This document shows, in pieces, positions 3,014-50,003 of a stretch of 64,000 nucleotides of DNA. The number at the start of each line of letters is the position of its first letter. Within the stretch, counting starts at the first letter, position 1. The translations under genes and the position numbers were made by a program. The notes beneath the pieces were generated by a model that ran no database searches, was not told where the DNA came from, and saw only the letters and a list, made by a program, of their open reading frames with translations. Location: positions 192,189 to 256,188 of the forward strand of contig JBAZUA010000001.1 of NCBI GenBank assembly GCA_041661645.1, in the 5' to 3' direction. Origin of the DNA: Minisyncoccota bacterium (GTDB taxonomy: Bacteria; Patescibacteriota; Minisyncoccia; Phycocordibacterales; UBA6065).

Positions 3014-3022
3014 ATTGGTCAA

Positions 3023-4292: not shown

Positions 4293-4321
4293 ATCCTCCG
4301 AATCATAAAAGAAACCTCAAG

Positions 4322-5639: not shown

Positions 5640-5671
5640 ATATTTTAACGCTTCTCGAGCGATGCTCTTGT

Positions 5672-5746: not shown

Positions 5747-5769
5747 ATATAGACCGACACCCGCTAAAC

Positions 5770-12287: not shown

Positions 12288-12317
12288 TTTGCCAAACTTT
12301 TTCCTTTCATGTAATAC

Positions 12318-14645
12318 TTGCCACAATATATGTCCAAACTACTCATAGTCGAGTCCCCGGCAAAGGCCAAAACCATCGGAAAATACCTCGGTGACGGCTA
12401 TACCGTAGTCGCATCCATCGGGCACGTCCGCGACCTCCCGAAGTCCAACAAGAAGGCCATCGACATCGACCACGGCTTCAAACCGCACTACGAGGTGTCC
12501 CCCGGAAAGGACTCCGTCCTGTCCGACATATCGCGCCTCGCCAAGAAGTCCGACGAAATACTGCTCGCGACCGACCCCGACCGCGAGGGAGAGGCAATCG
12601 CTTGGCACATCGCCGAGGCGGTGAACTTCGGGAAGAAGCCCGTCCGCCGCGTCGTGTTCCACGAGATCACCAAGGACGCCATCATCGAGGCGCTCACCCA
12701 CCCCCGCGACATAGACCAGAACCTGCGCCAGGCGCAGGAGGCGCGACGCGTGCTCGACAGGCTCGTGGGATACGACCTCTCGGGCGTCATCTGGAAGAAG
12801 GTTCGCTACGGCCTCTCGGCGGGCCGCGTCCAGTCCCCCGCCCTCCGCATCATCATGGAGCGCGAGCGGGAGATTCGTGCCTTCAAACCCGAGACCTATT
12901 GGACCATCTCCGCGGAAACCAAAACTGAGAAGACTTCGGCGAAACCGAGCGAGACGCTCGCCCTCAACTGCTCCATCGAGCCTCGCGAGAAGGCCGAGGT
13001 GGATCGCATACTCAAGACGGGCAAGGCCGAAGAGTGGGAGGTCGTATCGGTTGACGAGACCGAGGCCAAACGCAGCCCGAAGGCCCCCTTCACCACCTCG
13101 ACCCTTCAGCAGGCGGCCTCGACCCGCCTCGGCTATTCCCCATCGCGCACCATGTCCGTCGCCCAGAGACTCTACGAGGCGGGACTCATCAGCTACATGC
13201 GAACCGACTCGACCAACCTCTCGCAGCAGGCCATCGGGCAAATCGCCTCATATATAGAGAAGGAATACGGCAAGGCATCGGTCAACCTCCGCACCTTTAC
13301 CGCAAAATCAAAGAACGCCCAGGAAGCCCACGAGGCAGTCAGGCCAACGACCATATCCAAAAAGAGCGCGGGAGCGAATCCCGAGCAGGTCGCCCTTTAC
13401 GGGCTCATCTGGGCCCGCACCGTCGCGTCGCAGATGGTCGACGCCCGCATACTCCGCACCAAGATAGTGGCGAACACCGTCACCAAGAGCATTCCCGACT
13501 TCCATGCCAACGGCACCAGGCTCGTATCGACGGGCTGGCTCGCCGTGGACCCCGGCGCCCGAGGCGAGGACGTCGAGCTCCCAAAGGTCACCGCCGGAGA
13601 GAAGCTCGAACTCGTATCCCTCGACTCCCTCGAGAAGCAGACCGAGCCGCCTGGCCGATATTCCGAGGCGGGACTCATCAAGGAACTCGAGAAGCGCGGC
13701 ATCGGACGGCCCTCCACCTACGCCTCGATCCTTCGCACCCTCGAGGAGCGCGAGTACGTCACCAAGGAGAACAAGGCCCTCAAGCCGACCGACACGGGCG
13801 ACGTGGTGTCGTCATTCCTCGAGGAGCATTTCGGCCCGTACATAAGCGACACCTTCACCGCCGAGATGGAGGACAAGCTCGACAAGATCGCCGAGGGGCT
13901 GATGGGCTACGAGAAGACCCTCTCCGATTTCTACAAGCCGTTTTCGAAGGACGTGAAGATAAAGGACGCGCTCGACAAGGCCACAACCCTTGGCGATGCC
14001 GATGCAAAGTTCAAATGCCCCACCTGCGGATCATCCATGATTGTGAAGCTCGGGCGGGCCGGCAAGTTCCTATCGTGCTCCCGCTACCCTGACTGCGCCG
14101 GCGCGCTCATGCTCGACGGCACCGAGGTCCCGAAGGACCGCATTGTCGGCACGCATCCGGACACAGGTCTCGACATCACCGTAAAGTCCGGACGCTTCGG
14201 CCCGTACGTGCAGATGGGAGAAACGATCAAGGCCCCTAAAAAGCCCCGCAAGAAGAAGCCTACTAAAAAAGAGCTGGCTAAACTCGCAGCCGACCTTGCA
14301 GCGGGCATTGCCCCAGCCGCCGCCTCGACCAGCGCGGAACCAGAGATCGTCGGTCAGAAGGCAAAGATGGCATCCATTCCAAAGGAGATCGACCCGACCT
14401 CAATCACCCTCGCCCAGGCCGTTCACCTGCTCACCCTTCCCCGACGCCTCGGCACCCATCCCGTGACGGAAAAAGTAATCACCGCGAACATCGGACGCTT
14501 CGGACCCTACATAGTCCATGACGGAGACTTCCGCTCGGTCAAGAAGCCTGACGATGTGTATACCATCAGCCTCGGGCGCGCGCTCGACATGCTCAAGGAG
14601 GAAAAGAAGAAGCGTGGATGGAGGGCGAAGAAGAAAGCGGAATAA
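12318..14645 (+). CDS. topA: DNA topoisomerase I
   Basis: TOPRIM domain LLIVESPAKAKTIGKYL. Active-site region and C-terminal zinc ribbons (CPTCGSSM...CSRYPDC). The true start is probably the internal ATG near 12328. Confidence 0.9.
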   Translation: MPQYMSKLLIVESPAKAKTIGKYLGDGYTVVASIGHVRDLPKSNKKAIDIDHGFKPHYEVSPGKDSVLSDISRLAKKSDEILLATDPDREGEAIAWHIAEAVNFGKKPVRRVVFHEITKDAIIEALTHPRDIDQNLRQAQEARRVLDRLVGYDLSGVIWKKVRYGLSAGRVQSPALRIIMEREREIRAFKPETYWTISAETKTEKTSAKPSETLALNCSIEPREKAEVDRILKTGKAEEWEVVSVDETEAKRSPKAPFTTSTLQQAASTRLGYSPSRTMSVAQRLYEAGLISYMRTDSTNLSQQAIGQIASYIEKEYGKASVNLRTFTAKSKNAQEAHEAVRPTTISKKSAGANPEQVALYGLIWARTVASQMVDARILRTKIVANTVTKSIPDFHANGTRLVSTGWLAVDPGARGEDVELPKVTAGEKLELVSLDSLEKQTEPPGRYSEAGLIKELEKRGIGRPSTYASILRTLEEREYVTKENKALKPTDTGDVVSSFLEEHFGPYISDTFTAEMEDKLDKIAEGLMGYEKTLSDFYKPFSKDVKIKDALDKATTLGDADAKFKCPTCGSSMIVKLGRAGKFLSCSRYPDCAGALMLDGTEVPKDRIVGTHPDTGLDITVKSGRFGPYVQMGETIKAPKKPRKKKPTKKELAKLAADLAAGIAPAAASTSAEPEIVGQKAKMASIPKEIDPTSITLAQAVHLLTLPRRLGTHPVTEKVITANIGRFGPYIVHDGDFRSVKKPDDVYTISLGRALDMLKEEKKKRGWRAKKKAE

Positions 14646-23983: not shown

Positions 23984-26707
23984 TTATATAATCTTCTCCT
24001 TCTCCGCCTCGACGCTCTCAGCCAAGGTCTGCAAGGGAATGACCTTCCTGCCCTTCTTCACGTCGAAGGTGAATTCGACGGCCGAGCCGGTCGCACCCGC
24101 CTTGACGCCAACCTGTATCGATCCGCCCTTGCCCACGGCCTGCGAGATCATGAATCCCGCGACGGGTGTGAGTATCTTCTCCTGTATGAGTCGCCTGAGC
24201 GGTCGCGCGCCGTACTGCGGGTTGTAGCCTTCCTTCGAGAGGTATTCGAGCACCGCGGGCGCGATGTCGAGCCTGATCTCCTTCTCGGCAAGCCGCTTGA
24301 CCACCTGCTCCACCTGAATGCCGACGATGTTCCTGATAGACTCGGGCGACAGCACGTCAAAGAGTATGATCGAGTCGAGTCGATTGAGGAACTCGGGCCT
24401 GAAATAGTCCTTGAGGCTCTCCATGACCTTCGCCTTCACGTCCTCGTACTTGTTCTTGGTGCCGGTGTCGGACGCAAAGCCGAGCTTCTCCATCTTGTCG
24501 ATGAACTGGGACCCGATGTTCGAGGTGAGGATGATGACAGTGTTCTTGAAGTTTACGACACGGCCCTTGGTGTCGGTCAGGCGGCCGTTGTCGAGCACCT
24601 GCAGGAGTATGTTGAAGACCTCGGGATGGGCCTTCTCGACCTCATCGAAGAGGATGACGGAATAGGGCTTGTGTCGGACCATCTCGGTGAGGGATCCTCC
24701 CTCCTCATAGCCGACATAGCCCGGAGGCGCGCCGATGAGCTTTGAGGTCGAGTGCTTGTCCATAAACTCGGACATGTCGATGCGAATGAGTGACTTCTCG
24801 TCGTTGAACATGAACTCGGCGAGGGCCTTGGTGAGCTCGGTCTTTCCGACGCCCGTCGGTCCGAGGAACAGGAACGAGCCGATAGGCCTGTTCGGGTCCG
24901 CGATGCCGGCACGGGCGCGACGAATGGTATCGGCGATCTTCTTGACCGCCTCGAGCTGTCCGACGACGCGTCGATCAAGCTCGCTTTCCATGCGCATGAG
25001 CTTGCGAGCCTCCTCCTCGAGCATCTTGGATACTGGAATGCCCGTCCATTTGGAAACGACGTCGGCAATGTCCTGCTCGGTGATCTCCTCCTTCAGGATG
25101 CGACGCGAGGTCTGCATCTTCTTGAGCTTCTTTATCTTGACGTCGAGGTCCTTCTCGAGCATCGGTATCTTGCCGTAGCGGATTTCGGCGGCCTTGGCCA
25201 AATCGGCCTTGAGCTCGGCCGCCTCGGCGTCGATACGGAGCCTCTCGAGATCCTTCTTGTGGGACTTTATACCAGTGAGGAGCTCCTTCTCGGTCTTCCA
25301 CTTGAGCTCGACCTCCTGGGTCTGCTCCTTGAGGTCGGCAATCTCCTTCTCGATGGTCTTTATGCGAAGCTTCGGGGTCTTGGGGTCCTTGCTCACCTCG
25401 GCCTCCTTCCTGAGGGACACGAGCTCGATCTCGAGGCGCATGACCTTGCGATGGGTCTCCTCGAGAAGCGGCGGTTTGGATTCAAGAGAGATCTTCAATG
25501 CCGAAGAGGCCTCGTCGATGAGGTCCACCACCTTGTCGGGCAGGAACCTGTCGCTTATGTAACGGGACGAGAGGTTCACGGCCGCGATGATGGCGTCGTC
25601 CGTTATGCGGACGCCGTGATAGAGCTCGTACTTCTCCTTGAGGCCTCGCAGTATGGCGATGGCATCCTCGACGGTAGGCTCGACGACCTGCACGGGCTGA
25701 AAGCGTCGGGTAAGCGCCGGGTCTTTCTCTATATGCTTCTGATACTCCTTGAGGGTGGTCGCGCCGATGGCACGCAGTTCCCCACGAGCCAATGCAGGCT
25801 TGAGCATGTTCGATGCGTCCATCGATCCCTCGGACGCGCCGGCGCCGACGATGGTATGAATCTCGTCTATGAAAAGTATCACCTTTCCGTCCGACCTCTC
25901 GATCTCCTTCATGATGTTCTTGAGGCGCTCCTCGAACTCGCCGCGGTACTTGGTGCCCGCGACCAGAAGGCCGAGGTCGAGCGAGACCAGTTCTTTGTCC
26001 TTGAGGGACTCGGGAACGTCGCCCTGGGCCATGCGCAGGGCGAGGCCCTCGACGATCGCGGTCTTGCCCACTCCCGCCTCTCCAATGAGCATCGGGTTGT
26101 TCTTGGTTCGGCGCGAGAGTATCTGGATGATGCGGTTTATCTCGCTGTCGCGGCCGATGACGGGGTCAAGGCGATTCTCGAGGGCGAGCTTGGTCAGGCT
26201 GCGGGTGTACTTGAGGAGGGCGCGAGGCTTCTTGGCGGGAGAGGGCTCGTTGCTCTTGCTCGTGCGGAGTTCCTCGAGCACGCGAAGCACGCCTGCCTTG
26301 TCTATCTTGAAGCGGGTGAGCAAATCGAGGGCCGGGCTCTGCATCTCGAGGAGGGCGATGAAGAGATGCTCGGTAGAGATGAACTCATCGCCGAGGGACG
26401 CCGCGACCTTAGACGAGTTCTCGAGGGCCTGGGCAAGCTCGGGCGTGAGATATATCTGGTACGACTGGGAGAGCGTCGCCCCCTGTTGGGTGCCCTCGAG
26501 GGACTCCGCGAGAGTGTCGCTGAGAAGAAGGGTGTCGACCTCGAGCTTCTCGAGAATGGCCGAAACCATGCTCTCCTCCTGAATGATGAGGGATGAGAGG
26601 AGGTGAAGGGGGTTGACGTGATTCTGCCCCCGCTCGATGGCGAGCTCGTGGGCCCGCCTGATGGCCTCCTTGGCCTTGGTGGTGAAATGATTAAGGGGTG
26701 GTGTCAT
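23984..26707 (-). CDS. clpB: ATP-dependent chaperone ClpB
   Basis: Clp N domain, two AAA+ modules (GEAGVGKTA and GPTGVGKTE Walker A motifs), and a long middle coiled-coil domain typical of ClpB. 907 aa. Confidence 0.9.
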
Positions 26708-31908: not shown

Positions 31909-31980
31909 GGCCACGTAGAAAAGTGGTAATTCGGAGATCTGCAAAATCTCTATGCGCGAGTTCGATTCTCGCCGTGGCCT
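31909..31980 (+). tRNA. tRNA-Cys (anticodon GCA)
   Basis: Acceptor GGCCACG/CGTGGCC. Anticodon stem-loop GAGAT-CTGCAAA-ATCTC. T-arm GCGAG-TTCGATT-CTCGC. Confidence 0.75.
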
Positions 31981-32004
31981 CAAGGACGTTTCTTCGATAC
32001 AAGG

Positions 32005-32088
32005 TGGGTCAGGTGGGGGTCGAACCCACATCCGCTTTCGCGGACACCATTTTAAGTGGTGCGCGTATACCAGTTCCGCCACTAACCC
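32005..32088 (-). tRNA. tRNA-Leu (anticodon UAA), long variable arm
   Basis: Acceptor GGGTTAG/CTGACCC. D-arm as in Leu tRNAs (TGGCGGAACTGGTATACGC). Anticodon loop CTTAAAA. Variable arm TCCGCGAAAGCGGAT. Confidence 0.7.
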
Positions 32089-32221
32089 GATACCGAGAAG
32101 ATTATCACCTCGCACGCCTTTAGACCAACCTCGGTGGGAGCAAGACTTATATCGCAGATAAAAACTGGAAAAAAAGACAGATATGCGTTAAGATGGCTTT
32201 CGTCCCCAGACAGCGCAATAT

Positions 32222-32294
32222 CCTCCCTTAGCTCAGTTGGTAGAGCTGCTCCCTCTTAAGGAGAAGGTCGTAGGTTCGATTCCTACAGGGAGGA
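32222..32294 (+). tRNA. tRNA-Lys (anticodon CUU)
   Basis: Acceptor CCTCCCT/AGGGAGG. D-arm GCTC-AGTTGGTA-GAGC. Anticodon loop CTCTTAA. T-arm GTAGG-TTCGATT-CCTAC. An intrinsic terminator follows at about 32305-32350. Confidence 0.7.
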
Positions 32295-32389
32295 CAAACG
32301 AACGAAAGGCCGAAATGAGAAAACTCATTCCGGCCTTTCTGATACACAGAAGAGGGTGTCAAAATATTATTTGACAAAATCTTAAAAAA

Positions 32390-32695
32390 ATGGAGTATTC
32401 GAAGAAGAACCATATGCAACTTACATCCTACAGACTCTCTGGTTACGAAGGCTATTTCGTAAAAGGAGACGGGAGCACCCATGTGTGCGACAACTCTTGT
32501 TATCAACTGGAATTCAAGGCAAAAGGTGACGCCTCTGCGATAAGGCGCTCACTGGCCAGGGTCCGAACATTCGCAAGGACCTTCGAAGGGGCCGATTGGT
32601 ATAAGTTCGAGGTCGCCCTCCATCGCAAGGACAGCAAAGACGAGAGTCCGCTGCTCAAAGCCTCGGTAATCAAGAATTTGAAGAGGAAACCCTGA
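32390..32695 (+). CDS. Small hypothetical protein (101 aa)
   Basis: ORF preceded by an AT-rich promoter-like region (TTGACA at 32372) and followed by a terminator (gccggc hairpin plus tttttatt at about 32720-32757). Confidence 0.4.
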   Translation: MEYSKKNHMQLTSYRLSGYEGYFVKGDGSTHVCDNSCYQLEFKAKGDASAIRRSLARVRTFARTFEGADWYKFEVALHRKDSKDESPLLKASVIKNLKRKP

Positions 32696-32761
32696 TCCCG
32701 TCAAAATACGACAACGCCCTCCAAGCCGGCTTTCCAAAAAGAACGCCGGCTTTTTATTGTC

Positions 32762-32790
32762 TTGACCCACCCCTCGATGTCATCTACTAT
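32762..32790 (+). promoter_or_regulatory. Sigma70-type promoter TTGACC-17-TACTAT driving tRNA-Leu(UAG)
   Basis: The -10 box ends 9 nt before the tRNA 5' end. Confidence 0.5.
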
Positions 32791-32799
32791 GTCCCTAAC

Positions 32800-32880
32800 G
32801 CGCGAGTGGTGAAATGGCAGACACACCTGCCTTAGGAGCAGGCGCCGCAAGGCATGGAGGTTCAAGTCCTCTCTCGCGCA
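32800..32880 (+). tRNA. tRNA-Leu (anticodon UAG), long variable arm
   Basis: Acceptor GCGCGAG/CTCGCGC. Anticodon stem-loop CCTGC-CTTAGGA-GCAGG. T-arm GGAGG-TTCAAGT-CCTCT. Confidence 0.7.
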
Positions 32881-32897
32881 CAGCAAGGACGACAAGA

Positions 32898-32926
32898 TTG
32901 ACTTTTTCTATTTTAAATGATATTGT
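32898..32926 (+). promoter_or_regulatory. Sigma70-type promoter TTGACT-17-TATTGT upstream of the response regulator gene
   Basis: Consensus spacing. GGAG lies just before ATG 32934. Confidence 0.45.
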
Positions 32927-32933
32927 TTTGGAG

Positions 32934-33362
32934 ATGAAAAAAGCTCCTTGTCTCAAACCCCTTGTCCTCATCGTCGAGGACACCAGGGACATTGCGATAC
33001 TGTATCGCCACATGCTCAGCGCGCTCGGCATCAACACGGTAGCCAGCGCAGAAACGATAGCGGAGGCAAAAGCCAATGTCGCCAAAATCGACTTTGACAT
33101 AATCCTCTCCGACAACAGCCTGCCTGATGGCAAGGGTCTCGATTTCCTTAACAAGATGGCGCTTCGCCACCCGGGAACCTATCGATGCCTCATAACGACA
33201 GATCTCGATCTGACGGCCGGCGACAAGCTCAGGCACAACTTCAAGGCGAAGCCCCTTAAGTTGAGCGAAATGGAGGGTATAATCGAGGCCGCAAAGAAGC
33301 ATGCCGAGGAACATGCGGCGGCGAGACAGGCCGCAAGGCGGTCCGCAAGAAAGACTCACTGA
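32934..33362 (+). CDS. Single-domain response regulator (CheY-like receiver)
   Basis: LIVEDTRD acidic pocket. Phospho-acceptor region DIILSDNSLPDGKG. Conserved Lys in FKAKPLK. A terminator follows at 33371-33413. Confidence 0.6.
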   Translation: MKKAPCLKPLVLIVEDTRDIAILYRHMLSALGINTVASAETIAEAKANVAKIDFDIILSDNSLPDGKGLDFLNKMALRHPGTYRCLITTDLDLTAGDKLRHNFKAKPLKLSEMEGIIEAAKKHAEEHAAARQAARRSARKTH

Positions 33363-33627: not shown

Positions 33628-34605
33628 ATGAGACTGCTAAAAAGTATTGAGTTATGGATAAACGCGGCGATATGGATCGTCGGGCTTGTCCTCATCGAAC
33701 TGGCCGTGGCGGCCTTTCTGGGAGCCTTCGAGTTCCCCTATCAATCGCTCGTGTCATCGGCCCTCGGGCTCATGGCGTGGGCGTTCATCGTATCATGGAG
33801 CGTGAATAGGACCCTGATATACGTGAACTTTCAGAAAGCGCGTATCGGGATGAACATGTTCAACGGCGAAACAAAAACACTGTTCGCGGGCTGGAACATG
33901 ATCTATGTCTGGGAAGAGCTCCAGGAGCAGGAATTCGACCTGGTGAAGCGCGAGCTGGTCGAGGAGCACGGGACAGAGACATACACGTCACTCGACAGCG
34001 TTGTGCTCTTCGCCAAATGGACCATGGTCATCTCGCCCGATCCGAAAAACCTCAAGGTGTTTGCCGGATTCGACTGGAAGACCATCGTTGCGCAATTCAG
34101 GGCACACACGAACCAGGTCCTGTCTGACGAGTGCGGCAGGCGACTGGCGTCGGACACAACGACGAACAAGGCTGTTCTGAGCGCGATCGTCGCAAAGGCC
34201 TTCGGGGGCGCAAAACAAAGCGACCTGGAACTCAAGTACGGGGTCACGGTAAGCGACCCCGAGCTGGCGGACATCGATCAGGACCCGGCGGTCCTGAAGG
34301 CAAAGCAGATTGGCGTCGACACCGAGGTGTTTGCGAATGCGGTCAAGAACCTCATGCAGATAGCCCGGGACAACAACGACAACAGCCTGACCCTGCAGGA
34401 GGCCAAGAACACGGTGCTGATGATCATGAAGACGCCCGGAGTCGAGTTCAAGCTCTACGACCTCAAGGTCAACGGGCTGGAGCAACTGCAGCACCTCGCC
34501 TGGGGAGGATTGCACGGAGTCGGCGGCGGAGGAAAAGGACAAAACCCGGGCGGCGGCAAAAAGCCCCGCGGCGGACAACAGCAGCAACAACAAGCCAAAC
34601 CCTGA
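33628..34605 (+). CDS. Membrane protein with two N-terminal TM helices and a Gly/Gln-rich C-terminal tail; possibly SPFH/band-7-like
   Basis: TM helices, then GWNMIYVWEE...SLDSVVLFAKWTMVISPD, which weakly resembles SPFH. Low-complexity tail GGLHGVGGGGKGQNPGGGKKPRGGQQQQQQ. Confidence 0.45.
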   Translation: MRLLKSIELWINAAIWIVGLVLIELAVAAFLGAFEFPYQSLVSSALGLMAWAFIVSWSVNRTLIYVNFQKARIGMNMFNGETKTLFAGWNMIYVWEELQEQEFDLVKRELVEEHGTETYTSLDSVVLFAKWTMVISPDPKNLKVFAGFDWKTIVAQFRAHTNQVLSDECGRRLASDTTTNKAVLSAIVAKAFGGAKQSDLELKYGVTVSDPELADIDQDPAVLKAKQIGVDTEVFANAVKNLMQIARDNNDNSLTLQEAKNTVLMIMKTPGVEFKLYDLKVNGLEQLQHLAWGGLHGVGGGGKGQNPGGGKKPRGGQQQQQQAKP

Positions 34606-34619: not shown

Positions 34620-35018
34620 GTGAAAAAACACAACATCGGAAAGTTCGTCATATGGGGCTGCGTCATCGTGGCCCTGATCATGACGCGCTGTGTCTACCAA
34701 GACACCAAGACCAAGAAGGCAATACAGGCACAGGTGACGATCGCCGACCGGCAGAGCGTCATCCCCAGCGACCATCCCGAAGGCGGGGTCTGGAGACAGG
34801 TAGAAGCCGGCACGTGGAGCACATGGGTGCCCACGCTCGGCAAGATGATCAGCATCGCACCGGGATCGGCGGAAGTCGAGTACGAGTGCCTGCTCGCGGA
34901 CGGAAAGATCGTTTCCAAGCAAGGCAAGCCCAACGGCAACCTTGATTGGACCGAACCCGTCGTCAGCGAGCGATTCAAGTCGAACGTAAACCTGCTCTAT
35001 CAGTCGAAAGATCGATAA
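34620..35018 (+). CDS. Membrane-anchored hypothetical protein (GTG start)
   Basis: SD AAAGGAAA upstream. N-terminal TM helix. A terminator-like hairpin plus T-run follows at about 35044-35082. Likely co-transcribed with 33628..34605. Confidence 0.45.
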   Translation: MKKHNIGKFVIWGCVIVALIMTRCVYQDTKTKKAIQAQVTIADRQSVIPSDHPEGGVWRQVEAGTWSTWVPTLGKMISIAPGSAEVEYECLLADGKIVSKQGKPNGNLDWTEPVVSERFKSNVNLLYQSKDR

Positions 35019-35120: not shown

Positions 35121-35360
35121 CTAGACCCCCAGGGTTCCGGCGATGATCCTTATGATGCCCCACACCGAGATCATGATGAAGAGGCCGATGGTGCTGTAGA
35201 GGATGTGATTCGCCCCATCGGTCCTGGCCGTGCTCTCGCTCGAGTTACGCACATAGCTATACACCCCATAGACGAAATACGCGATGGCTACCGCAAAGAT
35301 AAGCTTGATCGCGGGATCAACCACGAACTCAAAAAAATCCTGGACTATTTGTGCATCCAT
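35121..35360 (-). CDS. TrbC/VirB2-like pilin family paralog P1 (two-helix core only, no signal peptide)
   Basis: 79 aa with two hydrophobic helices separated by a short polar loop (NSSESTARTDGAN). C-terminal helix STIGLFIMISVWGIIRII matches the family motif. Confidence 0.45.
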   Translation of the reverse strand: MDAQIVQDFFEFVVDPAIKLIFAVAIAYFVYGVYSYVRNSSESTARTDGANHILYSTIGLFIMISVWGIIRIIAGTLGV

Positions 35361-35374
35361 AGGGACGAGACTTG

Positions 35375-35743
35375 CTAGATGTTAGGGATCGAAGGAAGCT
35401 GCTTCTGGACGTTGTCCGCCCTGTTCTGGGTATCGAGACCGAAGGTGCTGACGAGGATGTTGACGAGTCCCCAGACCGAGATCATGACGAAGAGGCCGAT
35501 GATTCCGTAAATGATCTTGTCCTTTGCCGCCGCCTTTGCCTCCTCGCTTCCCGACATCACGTACTTTGCGATGCCGTAGATGAAGTACACGACCGCAGCC
35601 GCGATGATGAGGGGAAGAACGGTGTTAAGTATCTTGCTGATGAAACCGAATATGCTGAACACATCCGTTATCTTGGTGGTGCCCTGGGCCGCCGCCATGA
35701 ACGGAAGGGCGAACGATGCTGCGATAATGCCGATTTTTTTCAT
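35375..35743 (-). CDS. TrbC/VirB2-like pilin family paralog P2
   Basis: Signal peptide MKKIGIIAASFALPFMAAAQG. Helix 1 LPLIIAAAVVYFIYGIAKYV. Loop MSGSEEAKAAAKDK. Helix 2 IIYGIIGLFVMISVWGLVNIL. Confidence 0.55.
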   Translation of the reverse strand: MKKIGIIAASFALPFMAAAQGTTKITDVFSIFGFISKILNTVLPLIIAAAVVYFIYGIAKYVMSGSEEAKAAAKDKIIYGIIGLFVMISVWGLVNILVSTFGLDTQNRADNVQKQLPSIPNI

Positions 35744-35850
35744 ACGTTTTTCTAAATTCCTTATAATCTGCTAATGCCGTTATGCCCCTTGATTATACCA
35801 ATAAAACCAGATATGGCATAGGGCATGGGGATAAGATTCCGTACCTGCCC

Positions 35851-36246
35851 CTAGTCTGGTATGAGGGTTGGTATGTCGACCGAGTCAGCATCCTGACTGA
35901 GTCTGAAGGTGTTGTCGAGGATGTTCACGAAACCCCAAATAGACATCATGACGAAGAGGCCTATGACGCCGTAATAGATGGTCTTCTTCCCCTCCTCCCT
36001 CTTCTCCTCGCTCGAGAGCATCTTGAAGGCGCCGATAACCACATAGACGACGGAGAGGGCGACAACGAGATATACGAAGTAGTCAAAGAATCCGATGATG
36101 CAGTTCACAAGATTCTCGGCCCCAAACTCGAGCTGCCCGCAGGCGCTTACGGAACCCGTGTTGGCATTGGCGGCCAGCACGGCAAATGGAGTGGCCATCA
36201 CCGCCAGCAGAGAAAGGACGACCGCGCCCATGAATGCTTTTTTCAT
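35851..36246 (-). CDS. TrbC/VirB2-like pilin family paralog P3 (Cys pair)
   Basis: Signal peptide. C-x12-C (SACGQLEFGAENLVNC). Helix-loop-helix with [38 protein letters not shown]. Nearly identical core to P6. Confidence 0.55.
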   Translation of the reverse strand: MKKAFMGAVVLSLLAVMATPFAVLAANANTGSVSACGQLEFGAENLVNCIIGFFDYFVYLVVALSVVYVVIGAFKMLSSEEKREEGKKTIYYGVIGLFVMMSIWGFVNILDNTFRLSQDADSVDIPTLIPD

Positions 36247-36248
36247 CG

Positions 36249-36728
36249 CTATATTGATGTGGTTACGAACTTGTTAATGACGGTCCTGACGACCTCGGTT
36301 ATGACATTCGCCCCGATGAGGAGAATCGCGCCGACGATCGTGTACTTGAACGTCTTCTTGGCATCCTCCAAAGCATCGGGCTTCCCCTGCGCTATGACAA
36401 ACTTGAATCCCGATATGATGAGGAAGAGTGCGATGACCGCATAGCTCAGGCTGTAGACGAAGTTGATGACGAGGTAGAAAAAGTCGGGAATGGTCTTCAC
36501 CTTGTCGCCGAGGGGATTCTCGAGCTTGACTGATGCCGAGGTGTCCTTCAGCGGAACCTTGGCCGGTGTCACTGGTGTCCCGCTGGTCTGGAGGGGCGTG
36601 CCCGTGGTCTGCAGGGGTGCCGAAGTCGTCTGAACGGGCGTTCCTGTGGTTTGGGTGTCAGCAGCCAGGGCGAGAACCGGCACGGCGACCGAGACAAGAA
36701 GGGCGAAGGCGATGATGTGATGCTTCAT
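36249..36728 (-). CDS. TrbC/VirB2-like pilin family paralog P4 with a Thr/Pro-rich repeat linker
   Basis: Signal peptide. Repeats TTGTPVQTTSAPLQTTGTPLQTSGTPVTP. Then helix-loop (KPDALEDAKK)-helix. Confidence 0.5.
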   Translation of the reverse strand: MKHHIIAFALLVSVAVPVLALAADTQTTGTPVQTTSAPLQTTGTPLQTSGTPVTPAKVPLKDTSASVKLENPLGDKVKTIPDFFYLVINFVYSLSYAVIALFLIISGFKFVIAQGKPDALEDAKKTFKYTIVGAILLIGANVITEVVRTVINKFVTTSI

Positions 36729-36733
36729 GTGAA

Positions 36734-37237
36734 TTATTTCTTAAAATAGCTATTCCAGATGCCCTGCTGATCGGTCTTTATCTGGCCGGCCAGAAGGTTG
36801 TCGAGCACCGTGTACACCAATATGAATGATATGAGAATCCATATCAGGCCGATGGCGACGTACCTGAACATGTGCTTCGCCTTCTCGAGCTTGGCTGGAT
36901 TGCCGTTCGACATGAGGTATAGAAACGCCGTGTACATGATGATGGCGAGCACGACGGGAATCGAGAGGTAGAGCAGGAACTTGATGATCCTGTTGGCCAT
37001 CTCGATGAGGGCGTTGAAGTCGCAGTCCCTGCCCGAGATCACATTGCCATCAGCATCCTTCTGGGCCACGCCCGTGCACGGTACAATCTGGAAATCAGCC
37101 TGTTTCGGATCGGCCGAGCCGCCCACCGCAGTCGCTGTCTCGGCAAAAGCGACGATCGGCACGGTGGTCGAGAGGGCCGATCCCGCCAGGACGAGGATAA
37201 AGAGGGACGCGAGGAAGGCTTTGTTTACATGTTTCAT
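36734..37237 (-). CDS. TrbC/VirB2-like pilin family paralog P5 (Cys pair)
   Basis: Signal peptide. CTGVAQKDADGNVISGRDC. Helix-loop (NGNPAKLEKAKH)-helix. Stop overlaps the start of the upstream gene (ATGA). Confidence 0.5.
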   Translation of the reverse strand: MKHVNKAFLASLFILVLAGSALSTTVPIVAFAETATAVGGSADPKQADFQIVPCTGVAQKDADGNVISGRDCDFNALIEMANRIIKFLLYLSIPVVLAIIMYTAFLYLMSNGNPAKLEKAKHMFRYVAIGLIWILISFILVYTVLDNLLAGQIKTDQQGIWNSYFKK

Positions 37238-38520
37238 ATATTGGTTCTAAGAAGATTGTCTATTTCCGTGCTGGCGTCGCGGACGGCGTTGCTGGTTCGA
37301 GACCTGCCCGAAGTGACGCTCTCTATGAGCTTGGTAAAGGCGGCCGACGTGCCGCTCTCACTTGGATCAAGCCAGGCATGCGATATGAGGGCACTGTCAT
37401 AGAAGACTGACTTGTAGGCATTGCCCTGTGGCACGGCGATGAGGCTTCGGCGCACGGGCGGATAGCCGCTCGCGCCGACCCATTCGGTCTGAAGGGAATC
37501 TCCGGTGAGGGTCACCGCGGCGGTATAGGCGGCAAGGAGGTTCGGCGAGGACTTGAGCAGGGTCACGGCCTGCATGTTGCCAAAGGTCACCTTCCTGCCG
37601 GGAATCTGCGGTACGGGAGCGACGTCAAAGTTGAGGTTCGGGTTGGCCGCCCGGATGTCGGCGAGCTCGCTTGCAAAGCCGAAATAGACGGCGAGCCGAC
37701 CTGACAGGAACATTGCCCTATCGGAAGGAAGGGACCTATTCCAGGAATACGCCGGCTTAACCGGATTCGAGAACTCGGTGAAGAAATTGACCGCCTGCTC
37801 GCCAGGGACCAGACCATTGCCCTGATCAGAAAACACGCTGCGCAGAGATGCGTACTGGTCGCGGGAGACAATGGCGGTGCCTGCCTGAAGGGAGAGGAGG
37901 GAGATCATGTCCTTGGCATGCGTCACGTTGCTCGTGGCTCCGAAGGCGATAAGGGCCTGGCTTATGTTGCCTGACGCGTCCTTCTGGATTATCTTCGGCG
38001 CGAGCGAATAGAAGTCAGTCCACGACGATGGGGGCATGGGCACGTTGGCATTCGAAAATATGTTCCTGTTCCAGTACATGACGATTGGGTCAATGGAAAA
38101 CGGCAGGCCTATGATGCCGTCCGGCACGAGGTAAAGCTCCCCCTCCTCTATAAATGAGTCCTTGAAGGCCCTCTCCGAATAGGAGGTAAAGGGTATAGTG
38201 TAGAACTTGTCCTGCTGGCTCACGATGAGGTTCTGGGGCAAGAGAATCATGTCGGGACCCTTGCCGCGGGCGAGGGCCGCCACGAGATCAGCCTCAAAGG
38301 TGTCAGGGCTCTTTGCCACATAGCTTATGTTCATGGTGTCACGGTTCGCAAGGGCCGCCTTGGATAGAAAATTCGTGAATGTCTCGTTATCGATAGTCCC
38401 CCACATGGTCACCTGGACGGCACTATTCGAATTGCTGCTTTTCTGAACGGAAAAGAGAACCGCTGCGATAAGGGCCGCCATAACGAGAACTCCGGTCAGG
38501 ATGAGTTGGAAGCGAGTCAT
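37234..38520 (-). CDS. Extracellular solute-binding protein (SBP family 1-like), membrane anchored; no cognate permease or ATPase in the window
   Basis: N-terminal TM/signal. VQVTMWGTIDNE...GPDMILLPQNL... is typical of sugar-type SBPs. Translationally coupled with the flanking genes (4-nt and 1-nt overlaps). Confidence 0.55.
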   Translation of the reverse strand: MTRFQLILTGVLVMAALIAAVLFSVQKSSNSNSAVQVTMWGTIDNETFTNFLSKAALANRDTMNISYVAKSPDTFEADLVAALARGKGPDMILLPQNLIVSQQDKFYTIPFTSYSERAFKDSFIEEGELYLVPDGIIGLPFSIDPIVMYWNRNIFSNANVPMPPSSWTDFYSLAPKIIQKDASGNISQALIAFGATSNVTHAKDMISLLSLQAGTAIVSRDQYASLRSVFSDQGNGLVPGEQAVNFFTEFSNPVKPAYSWNRSLPSDRAMFLSGRLAVYFGFASELADIRAANPNLNFDVAPVPQIPGRKVTFGNMQAVTLLKSSPNLLAAYTAAVTLTGDSLQTEWVGASGYPPVRRSLIAVPQGNAYKSVFYDSALISHAWLDPSESGTSAAFTKLIESVTSGRSRTSNAVRDASTEIDNLLRTNI

Positions 38521-39047
38521 TATTGTTTTCGGGAAATTATACCATAATGCTGGGCGCCGGCGCTTATCTCCCTCTCAAAGACCAGGCCTGCCTCGGTCAA
38601 AAGCTTGATGGCGGCATCCTTGTACACGACATGCTCGGGATGCGGCCCCATATGGGAAAACGACGCGGACCAATCGATGAGCAGCACGCGACCCTTGTGC
38701 TTGAGGATGCGCTTTGCTTCCGAGAGAAAGGATTTCTTGTCCTCAATCATGAAAAGCACGTTCGAGACGATCACGACATCACAGGAACCCTCGCGGATCT
38801 TGGTGCCGCCGAGTCGTTCGAGGTCTCCCACGATGACGTCTATGTTGCGAACATGGAATCTCTGGGCCTCTTTCTTGAGCCGCTCGAGCATGTCCCTCTG
38901 GACGTCGACGGCATATACCTTGCCCATGGGGGCGACGGCCTTGGCTGCCTCAAGGGAATAGAATCCCGATCCTGAGCCGAGGTCGGCGACGATCATGCCG
39001 TCGGAGATGCCGAGCTGCTGTATATTGTGGCCAGGGTCGCTGAACAT
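38520..39047 (-). CDS. Class I SAM-dependent methyltransferase
   Basis: Motif I VADLGSGSGFYS. Motif II DVVIVSNVLFMIED. Motif III KGRVLLIDW. Confidence 0.7.
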   Translation of the reverse strand: MFSDPGHNIQQLGISDGMIVADLGSGSGFYSLEAAKAVAPMGKVYAVDVQRDMLERLKKEAQRFHVRNIDVIVGDLERLGGTKIREGSCDVVIVSNVLFMIEDKKSFLSEAKRILKHKGRVLLIDWSASFSHMGPHPEHVVYKDAAIKLLTEAGLVFEREISAGAQHYGIISRKQ

Positions 39048-39114
39048 GCGTCTAGTATAGCAAATAAAAAGAGCCCAGGTTGTGCCTGGGCTCCTTGATA
39101 CCTAACAGCGGTCA

Positions 39115-39954
39115 TTATTGCTTCATGACCGCGACCACGATGGGCTGATCCTTGCAGTAGAACTGCACCCACTGAACCCGGTCGCTCGTGAACGGCAAGA
39201 CGATCTTGCCATCACGTATAACCGCGGCCAGGTCGGTCGTCTGACCGCCCCAATCGCTCCAGGAACCACGGTCTTGACTGAACTTGACCTTGATCCGAAG
39301 ACCTGGTGTCGCCGAGACCGCGACGCCAGCCATGAGCTGCTCTGTCGAGACCTCACAGGATTTCTTGCCAGCCGCGAACGGATGGCTGACAAACTTGCTC
39401 AGGTCAACAGCGTCTGTCTGAGGACTCGCGTCCCAGGTGCTCACCATGACCAAGGCAGGTTGGGCTGGCATGCGGGTTGGAGCGATCATCACGGATTTAG
39501 ACAGGGCGTCGAAATCCTTGCGAAGCTTTGCAACCTCGGCCTTGAGGGCATCGCCCTCTGCCTTCGCCTTGTCTAACTCGACCTTAAGGGCCGCGTTCTC
39601 CTTGTCCTTGTCGATGATTGCCTTCGCCAGGTTGGCGACGACCTCATTCTGAACCGACAGCGTCTCCTTCTGGGCTGCCTTTGCAGGCTCCACCTTGGAG
39701 ACGGCCGACGACGGCTTGTCCGGAACGATCACGATCGGAAGCGGCGCCGAAACGGGCTTGGCCTCCGACTTGGCCGCCGCCACCTTGGCACGAGCGGCCT
39801 GAACCTCCTTCACAATGGGACTCACCGCAGAAGAGACATACATGACCAGGACAGTGAGGATGACACCGAGGCTCACCCAGACGATCCGCGACTTCACCTT
39901 CGCCCGCGCCATAAGGCGTTGGGCTTCATTTTCCTTACCTTCGTTGTTTTCCAT
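39115..39954 (-). CDS. Membrane-anchored coiled-coil protein (Ala/Lys-rich)
   Basis: One TM helix, then a long A/K/E-rich predicted coiled-coil (KVELDKAKAEGDALKAEVAKLRKDFD), and a C-terminal globular region. Confidence 0.45.
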   Translation of the reverse strand: MENNEGKENEAQRLMARAKVKSRIVWVSLGVILTVLVMYVSSAVSPIVKEVQAARAKVAAAKSEAKPVSAPLPIVIVPDKPSSAVSKVEPAKAAQKETLSVQNEVVANLAKAIIDKDKENAALKVELDKAKAEGDALKAEVAKLRKDFDALSKSVMIAPTRMPAQPALVMVSTWDASPQTDAVDLSKFVSHPFAAGKKSCEVSTEQLMAGVAVSATPGLRIKVKFSQDRGSWSDWGGQTTDLAAVIRDGKIVLPFTSDRVQWVQFYCKDQPIVVAVMKQ

Positions 39955-40081
39955 AGGATAAATCCCCTTTCAATGAACAGTCGGGCACAGTTTTAGCGCC
40001 CGTAGTTGTTGAGAACTGTTCTTCCTAATTGTATCACAATACTGTTGAAAGTCAATAGCGATAGACTCCCAAGAAACGGCC

Positions 40082-40711
40082 CTAGAACGTCCTCTCGAGG
40101 GGTGTCGGGGTCATCGGTGCGTCGCCTGAAAGCTGGAAGGTGCCCTCAAGGATATTGACGAATCCCCATATGGACATCATGACGAAGAGGCCGACGATGC
40201 CGTAGATGATGGCGTTCTTCCCCTCCTCCCTCTTCTCCTCGCTCGACAGCATCTTGAACGCCCCAAGGATCGTGTAGATCACGGTGAGGGACACGATGAG
40301 ATATATGAAATAATTAATGTACACGATGATGCAGTCGACGACGCCCACAAACCCGCCGTCGGTGAGGCTGTCGCAGGCTGTACTACCGCCCCTACCGCCG
40401 CCCGAGCCGAGTGAGAAAGTCGAGTTGTCCATCTTCGAGTTCGAGAAATCGTTGGTGGGTATGATTGCCTGCCCGACAGGCTCCGGGGCGGTGCTGGTGA
40501 AAACAGTCCCGCCCTCCGCCGTACCAGCCGTATCCACAGGAATGAACTGCGCGGATGTGGCCGCTGGCACCGAAAGAATGACGAGAAGCGATGAGACGAG
40601 GGCGAAGCGTGATATTGAAGTCATAGTGGTTTCATTATAGCAAAGAAAAAGCGGGACATCTGCCCCGCTTTCCCACATATGTGAATTTATCCGAAACTTA
40701 GAGACAAACAA
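40082..40711 (-). CDS. TrbC/VirB2-like pilin family paralog P6 (Cys pair, Gly-rich linker)
   Basis: Signal peptide. [64 protein letters not shown]. The start overlaps the gyrA 3' end by 14 nt. Confidence 0.55.
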
Positions 40712-43166
40712 CGCTCGCGAGCGAATCCCCCTCCCTCAGCTTCATGACGCGCACGCCCTGGGTCTGTCGCCCGAGGGTCGGTATCTCGTCGAGCTCGACG
40801 CGGACGACCTGGGACTTCTTGGACATGGCCACGAGCTCGCTGTCCTCCTCGGTGATAACCTTGGCCGAGATGACGACGCCCGTCTTGTCGGTAACCTTCA
40901 TGGTGAGTATTCCCGATCCGCCGCGATTCTGGGTCTTGTACTCAGATGCCTCGGTGGTCTTGCCGTAACCGTTCTTTGATATGACCATGACACGGGCGTT
41001 CTTTGCGTCCTTTCTGACGGGATCGGCGTTGATGACGCTGTCTCCCTTGCCCAAGTCAATGCCGCGTACGCCCATGGCCGACCTGCCCATCTCGCGCACG
41101 TCGCTTTCCTTGAATCTAATCGACTGCCCGTCAGCGGTGAAGACGAAGGTGTCGTCGCCCTTTGACACGAAGGTGACGGACACCAGCGAGTCGCCCTTGT
41201 CGAGAGTGATGGCGATGAGGCCGCTGCGACGCACGTCATGGAAGCCCTCGGCCTTGACCTTCTTTGCGGTGCCGAGCTTGGTGACCATCATGAGGGATAG
41301 TTCGGCAGACTGCTTTGACTCCTTCGGCATCGGAAGAATGGAGGTGACCTTCTCGTCATCGGCGAGCGAGAGGAAGTTGACGAGGGCCTTACCCTTGGTG
41401 GCGCGCTTGCCTTCCGGAAGCTCGTACATCTTTATCTGATACGCCTTTCCCTTGTCCGTGAAGAACAGGATGTCGGCATGGGTGTTGGTGGTGACGAGCT
41501 TGGTGACGAAGTCCTCCTCCTTGGTGTCGAGGTCTACCACGCCAACGCCGCCGCGGCGCTGCTTCTTGTATTCGTCCGGCGCGGTTCGCTTGACGTATCC
41601 GCCCTGGGTAAGCACGAGGACGCTCTCCACGTCAGGTATGAGATCTTCCTCGTTGATGACCTTCGCGCCGTGCTTGATGACCTTGGTGCGTCGCTCGTTG
41701 CCGTACTTGGCCTTGATCTCGATGAGCTCGGACTTTATGACGCCAAGGATCTTCTTTGGGCTGGCGAGAAGGGCCTTGAGCTCCTCGATGAGTGCCTGAA
41801 CGGCCTTGAGCTCATCCTCGATCTTCTTGCGCTCGAGTCCGGCGAGCTTCTGCAGTCGCATGTCGAGGATGGCCTGGGCCTGGAGTGCCGAGAACTTGAA
41901 CTTCTTCATGAGGCCGTCCTTGGCTTCTTCTACGTCCTTTGACGCCCTGATGAGCTTGATGATCTCGTCTATGTGATCGAGGGCCTTCTTGAGGCCGAGC
42001 AGGATGTGCTCGCGGGCCTCGGCGATGCGCAGGTCGTATATCGTGCGGCGCTTGACCACCTCGACGCGATGCTCGATGAAATGCTCGAGGATGGATTTGA
42101 GGGAGAGGGTCTCCGGTCGGCCCTTGACGAGGGCGACGACGTTCATGTGGAAGGTGTCCTCGAGCTGGGTGTGCTTGTACAAAAAGTTGAGTATCTTCTG
42201 GGGATGTGCTCCTGACTTGAGATCGATCACCACGCGAATGTCCTTGGCGGACTCGTCGCGAAGGCCCTTGATGCCCTCGATGCGCTTCTCGCGGACATGG
42301 TCGGCGATGGCCATGATGAGGTCTGCCTTCACGACGCGATACGGGATGGAAGAGATGATGATCTGGAAAATCCCGGCCTTGTTCTCGACGATCTCGGCAT
42401 CGCCACGGGTGAGGATGCCTCCCTTTCCGGTTGCGTAGGCATGCTGAATGTCCTTCTCGCTGTAAATGGTGCCTCCCGTCGGGAAGTCGGGACCCTTCAC
42501 GTATTTCAAGAGATCCTCGGTCGTCGCATCTCCGTCATCCATGAGGTGCACGGTCGCGTCGAGAACCTCGCCCAGGTTATGAGGAGGGATGTTCGTTGCC
42601 ATTCCAACGGCGATGCCGAGAGTACCGTTCAACAGAAGGTTCGGCACGGCAGTCGGGAGAACCGATGGCTCCTTGCGGGTGTTGTCGTAGTTCGGTCGGA
42701 AGTCCACAGTCTCCTTCTCGAGGTCGCGCAGGAGTTCGCCCGCGATGCGAGACATCTTTGCCTCGGTATACCTATATGCGGCGGCTCCGTCTCCGTCAAT
42801 CGATCCGAAGTTTCCCTGTCCGATGACGAGCGGATAGCGCATCGAGAAATCCTGGGCCATCTTGACCATGGCCTCGTACACGGACGCGTCGCCGTGGGGG
42901 TGATACTTACCGAGCACGTCTCCGACGATGGTCGCCGACTTCTTGGTCTTTGCGGACGCGGTGAGGCCGATGTCATGCATGGCATAGAGGATGCGTCGAT
43001 GCACAGGCTTGAGTCCATCACGCACGTCGGGCAGCGCTCGGGCGGTGATGACGGACATGGCATAGTCGAGATACGACTCGCGCATTTCAGTGACGATGTT
43101 TCGCGCCACGACGCCCTTTACTTCGAATGGCAGTTTTGGCTCGGGTGGGGTGTTTTTAGGGCTCAT
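40698..43166 (-). CDS. gyrA: DNA gyrase subunit A
   Basis: [21 protein letters not shown]. Active-site Tyr region ([10 protein letters not shown]...). C-terminal beta-pinwheel repeats. Confidence 0.9.
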
Positions 43167-49205: not shown

Positions 49206-49341
49206 TCGATGTTCTGGCACAAAGGCTCCCGACGGAGACTCTCGGAGCACGACGGTGCGAGGGTGAGAGTGAGGGCTTTAGCTTCCAAGCGAAAAGCCCG
49301 GCCTCCAGAGGGAGCCTTTGTGCCAGAACATACGAATGCCC
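49200..49341. repeat. Imperfect inverted repeat (arms 49201-49230 and 49310-49341, 28 bp with one bulge) flanking a 76-nt spacer
   Basis: The reverse complement of arm 1 is gggagcctttgtgccagaacatcgaatgtc. Arm 2 is gggagcctttgtgccagaacatacgaatgcc. The spacer folds on its own (GGGCUUU...AAAGCCC). Arm 1 contains the pth start codon. Confidence 0.6.
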
Positions 49342-49397
49342 ATTGTGTCAACACTATGATTCGGGCTACACTTCACACACCAATAATCAAGCACCAA

Positions 49398-50003
49398 ATG
49401 GACACATCAAACGATGCGGGCAAAGAAAAGAAGGAGACCCTCTTAAAGGAGGTCCTCAAATACGCCCTCTTCGCCCTGATCATCGTCCTACCCGTGCGCA
49501 CGTGGATAGCCCAGCCATTCGTCGTGAACGGCGGATCCATGGACGATACCTTCAAGGACGGGCAATACCTCATCGTCGACGAGATATCCTACCGCTTCAA
49601 GTCCCCCGAACGAGGCGACGTGCTTATCTTCAGGTACCCCGAGGACACCTCAAAATACTTCATAAAGAGACTTATCGGCCTCCCCGGAGAAACGGTCATC
49701 GTCAAGAACGACTCGGTAACCATAGAAAACGCCGAGTACCCTGCGGGCATCGCGTTAAACGAGCCCTACACGGGATCAAGAACGCTCGGCAACACGAGCG
49801 TGACACTCGGCACGGACGAATACTTCGTCATGGGAGACAACAGGATAGTCAGCCTCGACTCGCGGGCCTGGGGAGCGCTGCCGAAAAGCGACATCATCGG
49901 GCGGCCTGTGCTCAGGCTTCTCCCCTTCGGCAAGATGGGGACGTTTCCGGGGGCAGTGGCGAGTTCGAGCATGATAGGAGGGACAACAGCACCAGCACAG
50001 TAA
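49398..50003 (+). CDS. lepB: Signal peptidase I
   Basis: Catalytic Ser box GGSMDDTF. KRLIGLPGETV. GDNRIVSLDSRAWG (Lys box region). Confidence 0.8.
   Translation: MDTSNDAGKEKKETLLKEVLKYALFALIIVLPVRTWIAQPFVVNGGSMDDTFKDGQYLIVDEISYRFKSPERGDVLIFRYPEDTSKYFIKRLIGLPGETVIVKNDSVTIENAEYPAGIALNEPYTGSRTLGNTSVTLGTDEYFVMGDNRIVSLDSRAWGALPKSDIIGRPVLRLLPFGKMGTFPGAVASSSMIGGTTAPAQ

Follow-up and report, generated by a model that had tools for sequence, protein, structure and literature searches.

Tandem arrays of VirB2-like pilin genes have already been published from Patescibacteria, and such an array is, as a kind, known. In S. epibionticum ML1, a VirB2-like pilin array lies in the organism's type IV secretion system (T4SS) cluster SEML1_0006-0019 (Wang 2023, PMC10633639); the array in that cluster is essential, and a FEMS review puts its predicted pilin subunits at six. 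More recently, the Pfam profile PF18895 (T4SS_pilin) and related profiles were applied to 3,035 genomes, yielding VirB2-like pilins in 1,948 VirB4-containing assemblies (near virB4 in 1,135) as well as 441 arrays, each comprising 2-11 genes and found particularly in Microgenomatia and Saccharimonadia (Quinonero-Coronel 2025, PMC12102498). Arrays near virB4 are mapped in ring 5 of Fig. S9 of that paper, and the reading given to arrays there invokes adaptation to different hosts; its text mentions neither gyrA nor solute-binding proteins, and the only methyltransferase in it is the rRNA methyltransferase KsgA near virB4. A 2025 review speculates that the pilus serves as a conduit for uptake from the host. 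Here, we describe an array of six pilin or pilin-like genes, P1-P6, in a 64,000-nucleotide stretch (‘the window’) of a Minisyncoccota bacterium (assembly GCA_041661645.1, contig JBAZUA010000001.1, positions 192,189 to 256,188), where it is associated with genes for a solute-binding protein (SBP) and a methyltransferase (MT) downstream of gyrA. Full-text literature searches returned no other description of a gyrA-MT-SBP-pilin locus, and this SBP-coupled, position-ordered operon context is what is new.

The locus belongs among the patescibacterial PF18895 arrays and resembles the published ones (PMC10633639, PMC12102498) in its PF18895 family, its phylum, the lack of a relaxase context, and the tandem arrangement of several divergent proteins built from a signal peptide and a hairpin (here five plus one), sometimes with non-pilin genes between them. 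It differs from them in being remote from virB4 and lying inside a conserved gyrA-MT-SBP operon, in having an ordered set of orthologous paralogs, and in belonging to Paceibacteria, which was not among the classes singled out for arrays. The resemblance to the TrbC/VirB2 proteins of the T-pilus, RP4, and F-type pili consists of a leader, two hydrophobic helices, a short charged loop, and a mature length of approximately 70-100 amino acids (aa), together with weak, sub-threshold matches of P4-type proteins to the Pfam TrbC family. However, there is no significant sequence or profile similarity to TrbC/VirB2, virB1, virB3, and virB4 are not adjacent, and the organism is monoderm; five distinct subunits take the place of one major pilin plus VirB5, and some subunits bear large immunoglobulin (Ig)-like N-domains or are concatenated. 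The ‘Mbov_0395 family pilin-like conjugal transfer protein’ of Mycoplasma integrative and conjugative elements (ICEs; NCBIfam NF045849) is likewise a small protein with two transmembrane (TM) segments from monoderm MPF_FATA-type systems, but P2 falls under the curated cutoff (37 bits vs 40), and the Mycoplasma proteins are single-copy and located in ICEs next to VirB4/TraG-type genes.

The pilin genes are as follows (scores are for PF18895).

35121-35360, minus strand: P1, 79 aa, two-helix pilin-like core without a signal peptide, last of the array; 27.1 bits
35375-35743, minus strand: P2, 122-aa pilin with a signal peptide, the most conserved paralog, named ‘pilin’ by NCBI; 48.1 bits
35851-36246, minus strand: P3, 131-aa pilin with a signal peptide, Cys36/Cys49, and an EEKREEGK loop; 48.3 bits
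36249-36728, minus strand: P4, 159-aa pilin with a Thr/Pro-rich extracellular linker; 37.6 bits
36734-37237, minus strand: P5, 167-aa pilin-like protein with an extracellular N-domain containing Cys54/Cys72; 20.9 bits (below the gathering threshold)
40082-40624, minus strand (revised start): P6, 180-aa pilin whose long extracellular N-region is Gly-rich, plus a Cys pair; 39.0 bits

A preliminary description of this DNA had listed six small paralogous open reading frames (ORFs), and all six are present, each on the minus strand, with five in tandem and P6 three genes away. Their paralogy is far above chance: pairwise BLASTP gives 61% identity for P3-P6 (E=2e-40), and further matches are P1-P2 (3e-18), P2-P6 (4e-17), P4-P5 (4e-8), and P3-P4 (4e-5). 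Identity within the array is low (16-61%). The matches divide the proteins into two subgroups, {P1,P2,P3,P6} and {P4,P5}. The 35-residue ‘conserved core’ quoted in the preliminary description did not hold up as a single sequence, since it combines P3/P6 with P2. WC763_01395, on a 263-kb contig of a Candidatus Paceibacterota metagenome-assembled genome (MAG), is identical to P3, and P6 and P2 are annotated as ‘pilin’ in that MAG.

The single architecture ascribed to all six proteins applies to P2-P6. In P3-P6, hydropathy profiles show a signal-peptide-like segment followed by two hydrophobic helices, and the signal peptide of P2 was recognised by eye; P1 has two hydrophobic segments (residues 8-36 and 52-79) and no signal peptide. 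In an AlphaFold model of P3, based on an alignment of 39 sequences (predicted local distance difference test score, pLDDT, 75.7), a signal helix and a short helix are followed by a long hairpin of two helices (42-78 and 80-113), in agreement with the helix-loop-helix topology that had been expected. The translations bear out the Cys pairs (P3 C36/C49, P5 C54/C72, P6 C84/C98), P4's Thr/Pro-rich linker, and P6's Gly-rich spacer. For P6, the frame 40082-40711 first reported does exist in the ORF list as a TTG-extended frame. The true start is almost certainly ATG 40624 (180 aa, the same as the NCBI call) because the strong gyrA terminator hairpin (40674-40645), and then TGCTATAAT, lie inside the TTG extension. 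P6 is thus preceded by its own TGCTATAAT box.

Membership of the PF18895 family (gathering threshold 26.6 bits) is reached by five of the six proteins, namely P1, P2, P3, P4, and P6, and the family architecture (an optional signal peptide, then helix, short charged loop, and helix) agrees with the hydropathy profiles and the AlphaFold model, P1 being the one without a signal peptide. We accept P5 as a divergent member because its positional orthologs elsewhere score 25-36 bits and because it matches P4 at E=4e-8. The other half of the original proposal, a TrbC/VirB2 identity, fared less well: the only match to PF04956 (threshold 27.9 bits) is that of P4, which at 20.5 bits is sub-threshold and recurs weakly in P4-type orthologs. 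The tests applied do not place the proteins in TrbC/VirB2 proper. The family that they do belong to is large, with 20,631 cluster representatives at E<=1e-3 in a profile search, and many of the top matches contain 2-8 units. It is also poorly annotated in public metagenomes; P2 homologs bear a mix of automatic JGI names that are clearly wrong, such as ‘NADH:ubiquinone oxidoreductase subunit 6’, ‘fumarate reductase subunit D’, and ‘cation transporter-like permease’.

The genes that tie the array to its surroundings are the following.

37234-38520, minus strand: SBP (SBP_bac_8/SBP_bac_1 in Pfam), membrane-anchored, of oligosaccharide type by its relatives in the Protein Data Bank (PDB), and syntenic in relatives
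38520-39047, minus strand: MT, class I S-adenosylmethionine-dependent methyltransferase of 175 aa, soluble, without a TM segment (Pfam Methyltransf_31/11/25)
40698-43166, minus strand: gyrA, conserved upstream neighbour that anchors the chromosomal position of the module, as judged by synteny

To place this arrangement among relatives, loci were scanned with a P3-subfamily alignment as query, one genome per species, which gave 78 loci. All are from MAGs of Parcubacteria/Paceibacteria type, including Taylor-, Campbell-, Nomura-, Zambryski-, Kaiser-, and Giovannonibacteria; many of the ‘Saccharibacteria’ titles among them are probably placeholder names. In virtually every locus with enough flanking sequence, gyrA, MT, SBP, and then 4-7 PF18895 genes follow one another on one strand. 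Approximately 60 species-level relatives share the gyrA-MT-SBP-pilin order. The same order is found on contigs carrying P3 homologs and on those of distant P2 homologs sampled at 45-53% identity. Complete Paceibacteria genomes such as OZ246398.1 and CP174359.1 also have the module. We consider the block to be old because identity to the window across loci is 54-89% for GyrA, with medians of 38% for SBP and 46% for MT. It forms part of a wider syntenic block that includes S1, a metallo-beta-lactamase-fold gene, and gyrA on one side and RbfA, IF-2, NifS-like, and ClpB genes on the other.

Coupling is closest between SBP and the pilins. From the SBP stop codon to the first pilin start there are at most 10 nt in 55 of 67 loci, with an overlap in 22; the spacing between MT and SBP is looser. 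In the window, the overlaps noted earlier are as described, with an ATGA at 37234-37237 shared by SBP and P5 and a 1-nt overlap of MT and SBP at base 38520. The grouping of further genes with the array can accordingly be retained for SBP and MT; the coiled-coil protein that had been included with them is a lineage-specific ORFan.

Pilins of relatives in the same 67 loci were typed by the window paralog that each of them matched best. The first position after SBP is occupied by a P5-type protein in 51 loci and the second by a P4-type protein in 47; the middle positions are of P3/P2-type, and the last is usually a P1-type protein of approximately 80 aa without a leader. P2 is the best conserved, its orthologs being up to 83% identical. 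Because position and type are kept across genomes with GyrA only 54-89% identical, the paralogs are best regarded as position-specific orthologs, that is, as ancient and specialised fixed subunits, and not as recent variants. P6, found in only a subset of relatives, is a recent duplicate of the P3-type; it and the ORFan are lineage-specific extras inserted here between gyrA and the module.

The orthologs also reveal elaborations that the window itself does not have. P5-type orthologs elsewhere reach 350-700 aa, with Ig-like domains N-terminal to a C-terminal PF18895 hairpin: IPT/TIG repeats at L084:6860-8968 and L054:8377-9444, and FN3/purple-acid-phosphatase-N-like Ig domains at L083:6943-8559, L044:6649-8157, and L042:6372-7871 (L numbers denote loci). 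This suggests that the Ig-bearing P5-type may be an adhesin on a pilin anchor. At the middle position of locus L097 (8001-9821; protein P0095), a 606-aa ‘poly-pilin’ comprises seven PF18895 hairpin units joined by linkers of approximately 15-20 aa; five separate pilin genes, each of 106 aa, come after it, all behind gyrA-MT-SBP. Another protein, P0177, has eight PF18895 units in 820 aa.

On balance, and with modest confidence, we favour the view that the locus encodes a VirB2-like heteromeric surface filament or complex coupled to the SBP and probably assembled by a T4SS encoded elsewhere. Held jointly with this, and no more firmly, is the view that the locus represents the patescibacterial VirB2-like (PF18895) array as it occurs in Paceibacteria, in the form of a chromosomal, vertically inherited operon of MT, SBP, and five specialised pilins. 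Under such a scheme, the pilins would be exported by Sec (a signal peptidase I gene is located at 49209-50003), inserted as hairpins with both termini outside and the charged loop toward the cytoplasm, and joined in a single heteromeric filament or stalk at the surface, each subunit having a defined role. P2/P3-type proteins, which are the most conserved, have a promoter-like site of their own, and are amplified or fused in some genomes, could be the bulk subunit. P4/P5-type proteins, with their variable extracellular N-domains (Ig-like in relatives), could be adhesive or tip subunits, and the leaderless P1-type might serve as a base or terminator subunit. The assembly engine would most likely be a VirB4-type T4SS encoded at another place in the genome; 2,417 of 3,035 Patescibacteria assemblies have VirB4, near dnaA/dnaN in Paceibacteria (Quinonero-Coronel 2025, PMC12102498), which makes it probable a priori, at about that frequency, that this genome has one. 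The co-translated SBP may be held at or in the structure and bind host-derived oligosaccharide, for adhesion or nutrient capture, and MT may modify a component or be a mere syntenic passenger.

Several observations weigh against this filament reading. As the preliminary description had stated, no VirB4, VirD4, VirB6, or type IV pilus assembly gene is present in the window, which extends 35 kb and 23 kb to either side of the array. Its only ORFs of at least 450 aa encode TopA, ClpB, IF-2, GyrA, and an HlyD-like protein; a 445-aa frame at 25259-26596 (plus strand), antisense to clpB, is regarded as spurious. ORFs of middle size encode SerRS, ParB, MgsA, Alr, a NifS-like protein, MiaA, a histidine kinase, DprA, LepB, HisRS, FtsA, FtsZ, TrxB, an ABC/FtsX/HlyD set, DnaX, Dus, and FtsQ. 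Neither the virB3/virB4/virB6 neighbourhood typical of a PF04956 context nor a virB4 within approximately 20 coding sequences accompanies the array; no T4SS gene occurs in a 10-kb extension past the left edge of the window (L085), and neither VirB4, VirD4, or VirB6 nor any VirB4-like large ORF was seen within approximately 10 kb of the arrays in related loci. By organism name, three genomes with such arrays could be traced in the published table: one is scored VirB4-positive and the other two VirB4-negative, all being drafts. Comparisons with known pilins point the same way: hhalign against eight MPF_T VirB2/TrbC proteins (an alignment made from plasmid records) gave a probability of 1-2%, and a profile search of PDB sequences returned no pilin and only a spurious FabK match. 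Fold searches, which are uninformative for a hairpin, did not detect homology to experimentally characterised VirB2/TrbC either. A seven-unit poly-pilin does not fit easily with a helical pilus built by extracting one subunit after another. To our knowledge, no filament has ever been seen for the PF18895 family, and the roles proposed above for single paralogs, SBP, and MT are ones that we infer.

These points bear most directly on an alternative that we regard as possible but unlikely, in which the locus encodes a T4SS-independent complex resembling the bindosome of Sulfolobus, whose sugar-binding proteins require small pilin-like Bas proteins for surface deployment (Zolghadr 2011, PMC3047682). 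The five hairpin proteins and the SBP would then form a fixed hetero-oligomeric scaffold spanning membrane or wall that positions an oligosaccharide-binding protein and Ig adhesins at the surface, with the PF18895 hairpin acting as an oligomerising anchor and not as a polymerising pilin. The analogy, and it is only that, lies in the association of sugar-type SBPs with several small pilin-like membrane proteins, in an unusual conserved hydrophobic SBP N-terminus, and in the proposed deployment of binding proteins in the envelope. It gains from the missing virB4 near the array in the window and in approximately 60 relatives, from the tight SBP-pilin coupling across the 67 loci, from a fixed and ordered paralog set that suggests a defined stoichiometry, from the existence of fused 7-8-unit proteins, and from the two VirB4-negative genomes among the three matched, although these are incomplete drafts. 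The SBP anchor (window 38434-38520) is a further point in its favour: in approximately 60 of 66 orthologs from loci L002-L084, it consists of a short basic/polar leader, FQ (occasionally FK), and approximately 22 hydrophobic residues, and such sequence conservation would be unusual for a mere anchor.

The comparison weakens at the level of parts. Bas proteins are type IV pilin-like, bear signal peptides of class III, and depend on BasE/BasF as ATPase and platform, whereas the present proteins are VirB2-like hairpins with no adjacent assembly ATPase, and neither a PilB-like ATPase nor a PilC-like platform is found in the window. The SBP N-terminus is pilin-signal-like yet lacks the Gly/Ala at -1 and the Glu at +5 of a canonical prepilin site (Pfam Pilin_N matches at E=0.21 only), and an ABC permease partner was not identified. 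Moreover, the same family is embedded in, and essential with, the Saccharibacteria T4SS cluster, and it lies near virB4 in 1,135 of 1,948 assemblies. A related and bolder proposition, which we hold to be rather unlikely, is that of a distinct, class-wide Paceibacteria machine in which VirB2-like hairpins deploy an oligosaccharide-binding protein and Ig adhesins at the host interface, either independently of a VirB4 T4SS or in loose association with one. If true, this would amount to a VirB2-based bacterial counterpart of the archaeal bindosome or to a conduit for nutrient capture, and it would supply the first concrete substrate clue for the patescibacterial ‘T4SS pilins’.

Whether SBP and MT belong functionally with the pilins is a separate matter. 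The pilins could be T4SS pilins with SBP and MT as unrelated housekeeping genes sharing the neighbourhood downstream of gyrA; since the wider block is syntenic as a whole, conserved order alone is weak evidence of co-function, and the looser MT-SBP spacing fits a passenger as well. We nevertheless find this improbable. An ATGA overlap or a gap of at most 10 nt in 55 of 67 loci, over deep divergence, is typical of co-translated partners, and no ABC permease or ATPase stands beside the SBP: in every locus compared, it is flanked by the methyltransferase and the pilins, and the sole ABC genes in the window are a MacB/FtsX-HlyD-type set at 58-62 kb. The SBP is also a firm family assignment (SBP_bac_8 71.2 bits and SBP_bac_1 56.2 bits, both over the gathering threshold), with a single N-terminal TM segment, and its nearest solved relatives, 4r9f (2e-10), 5ci5 (1e-6), and 6rjy (2e-4), are all oligosaccharide binders.

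Still less probable in our view is a reservoir of diversified pilin variants, antigenic or related to host range, which would provide alternative major pilins for a machine elsewhere. The preliminary description had taken the diversification of the paralogs as a sign of variable surface structures, and the published interpretation of arrays invokes host adaptation; the low intra-array identity, the varying N-terminal extracellular regions (Cys loops, Thr/Pro linker, Gly spacer), the recent origin of P6, and the amplification of the middle type in L097 could all be read in that sense. The ancient position-specific orthology contradicts it. The paralogs are old, and their position and type are kept down to 54% GyrA identity, the opposite of rapid turnover; P2 is strongly conserved, and each copy in the array is a complete operon gene that appears to be expressed, with neither silent cassettes nor recombination repeats. 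Lastly, a holin-like or generic phage-derived origin, suggested by the small two-TM architecture and a weak ‘2TM effector’ match of P3, is effectively refuted by the absence of relatives among 2.9 million IMG/VR viral contigs, the syntenic housekeeping chromosomal context in every genome, and the cleavable signal peptides and extracellular Ig-domain fusions, so that the phage context named earlier as a possible refutation of the pilin reading is not seen.

The remaining features around the array are the following.

35792-35819, minus strand: promoter-like site ATGCCA-16-TATAAT with TG (extended -10), in the 107-nt gap before P2
39068-39096, minus strand: terminator-like hairpin between the coiled-coil gene and MT, 12-bp stem and T-rich tail
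39115-39954, minus strand: coiled-coil membrane protein, 279 aa, single-pass, a lineage-specific ORFan between gyrA and the conserved module
40028-40055, minus strand: promoter-like site TTGACT-16-TACAAT with TG, upstream of the coiled-coil gene
40645-40674, minus strand: intrinsic-terminator-like hairpin just past the gyrA stop codon, 13-bp stem and T-run

The position downstream of gyrA is thus a conserved one, as first described, with the qualification that in the window a terminator separates gyrA from the array. Because of these terminator- and promoter-like sites, the locus may be divided into separate transcription units, as the sequence suggests: P6 alone, the ORFan alone, MT-SBP-P5-P4-P3, and P2-P1. 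An Rfam scan of 30-45 kb detected only tRNAs.

The coiled-coil protein found no homolog but itself among 5.8 billion proteins and shares no similarity with the protein at the same place in L002, the nearest relative. Its only Pfam match, to the DivIC coiled coil, is weak and below threshold. NCBI labels it ‘septum formation initiator family protein’ from this sub-threshold match, which covers the coiled coil only; the label is probably a mis-annotation. A role as a VirB8/TraM-like component, for which the succession of TM segment, coiled coil, and C-domain was considered, was dropped, as there is no homolog at all. A defence-system reading was likewise rejected, PADLOC having returned only a generic methyltransferase match (mad2) and the weak 2TM effector match for P3 (E=0.004).

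Two genes convergent with the array, 33628-34605 and 34620-35018 (both plus strand), have no Pfam family; the product of the former combines an N-terminal TM region with a Gly/Gln-rich tail (…GGGGKGQNPGGGKKPRGGQQQQQQAKP), and genes at the same place in the relatives L005 and L097 give weak or clear Band_7/SPFH matches. Four tRNA genes (Cys, Leu-taa, Lys, and Leu-tag; 31909-32881) lie just upstream of a response-regulator-like ORF, whose longest frame, 32814-33362, overlaps tRNA-Leu and whose true start is probably downstream. A dprA-topA pair occupies 11397-14645, dprA being the only competence-related gene seen in the window. Window positions 1-6000 have a G+C content of 44-48%, compared with 55-61% in the remainder, and include genes for an acetyltransferase, a NUDIX protein, a histidine phosphatase, and ClpP; this segment may be compositionally distinct and was possibly acquired. 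Approximately 7-10 kb past the left edge of the window, another assembly of the same organism (L085:13097-16537) encodes a 456-aa protein with an Ice_binding match and a weak SpaA_2 match, followed by two sortase genes, and a sortase-assembled surface fibre in the same genome is possible.

In the single species tested, epibiotic growth requires the patescibacterial T4SS and its pilin arrays. In the largest patescibacterial class, the present locus comprises a five-paralog set that is ancient and ordered, physically apart from virB4, and co-translated with a sugar-type binding protein, a warning that surveys confined to the surroundings of virB4 pass over a major class of arrays. It turns the idea of ‘variable pilins’ into testable hypotheses concerning subunit roles, an SBP-pilin complex, oligosaccharide capture, and dependence on or independence of VirB4, and the conserved SBP operon hints at a structure that captures host material.

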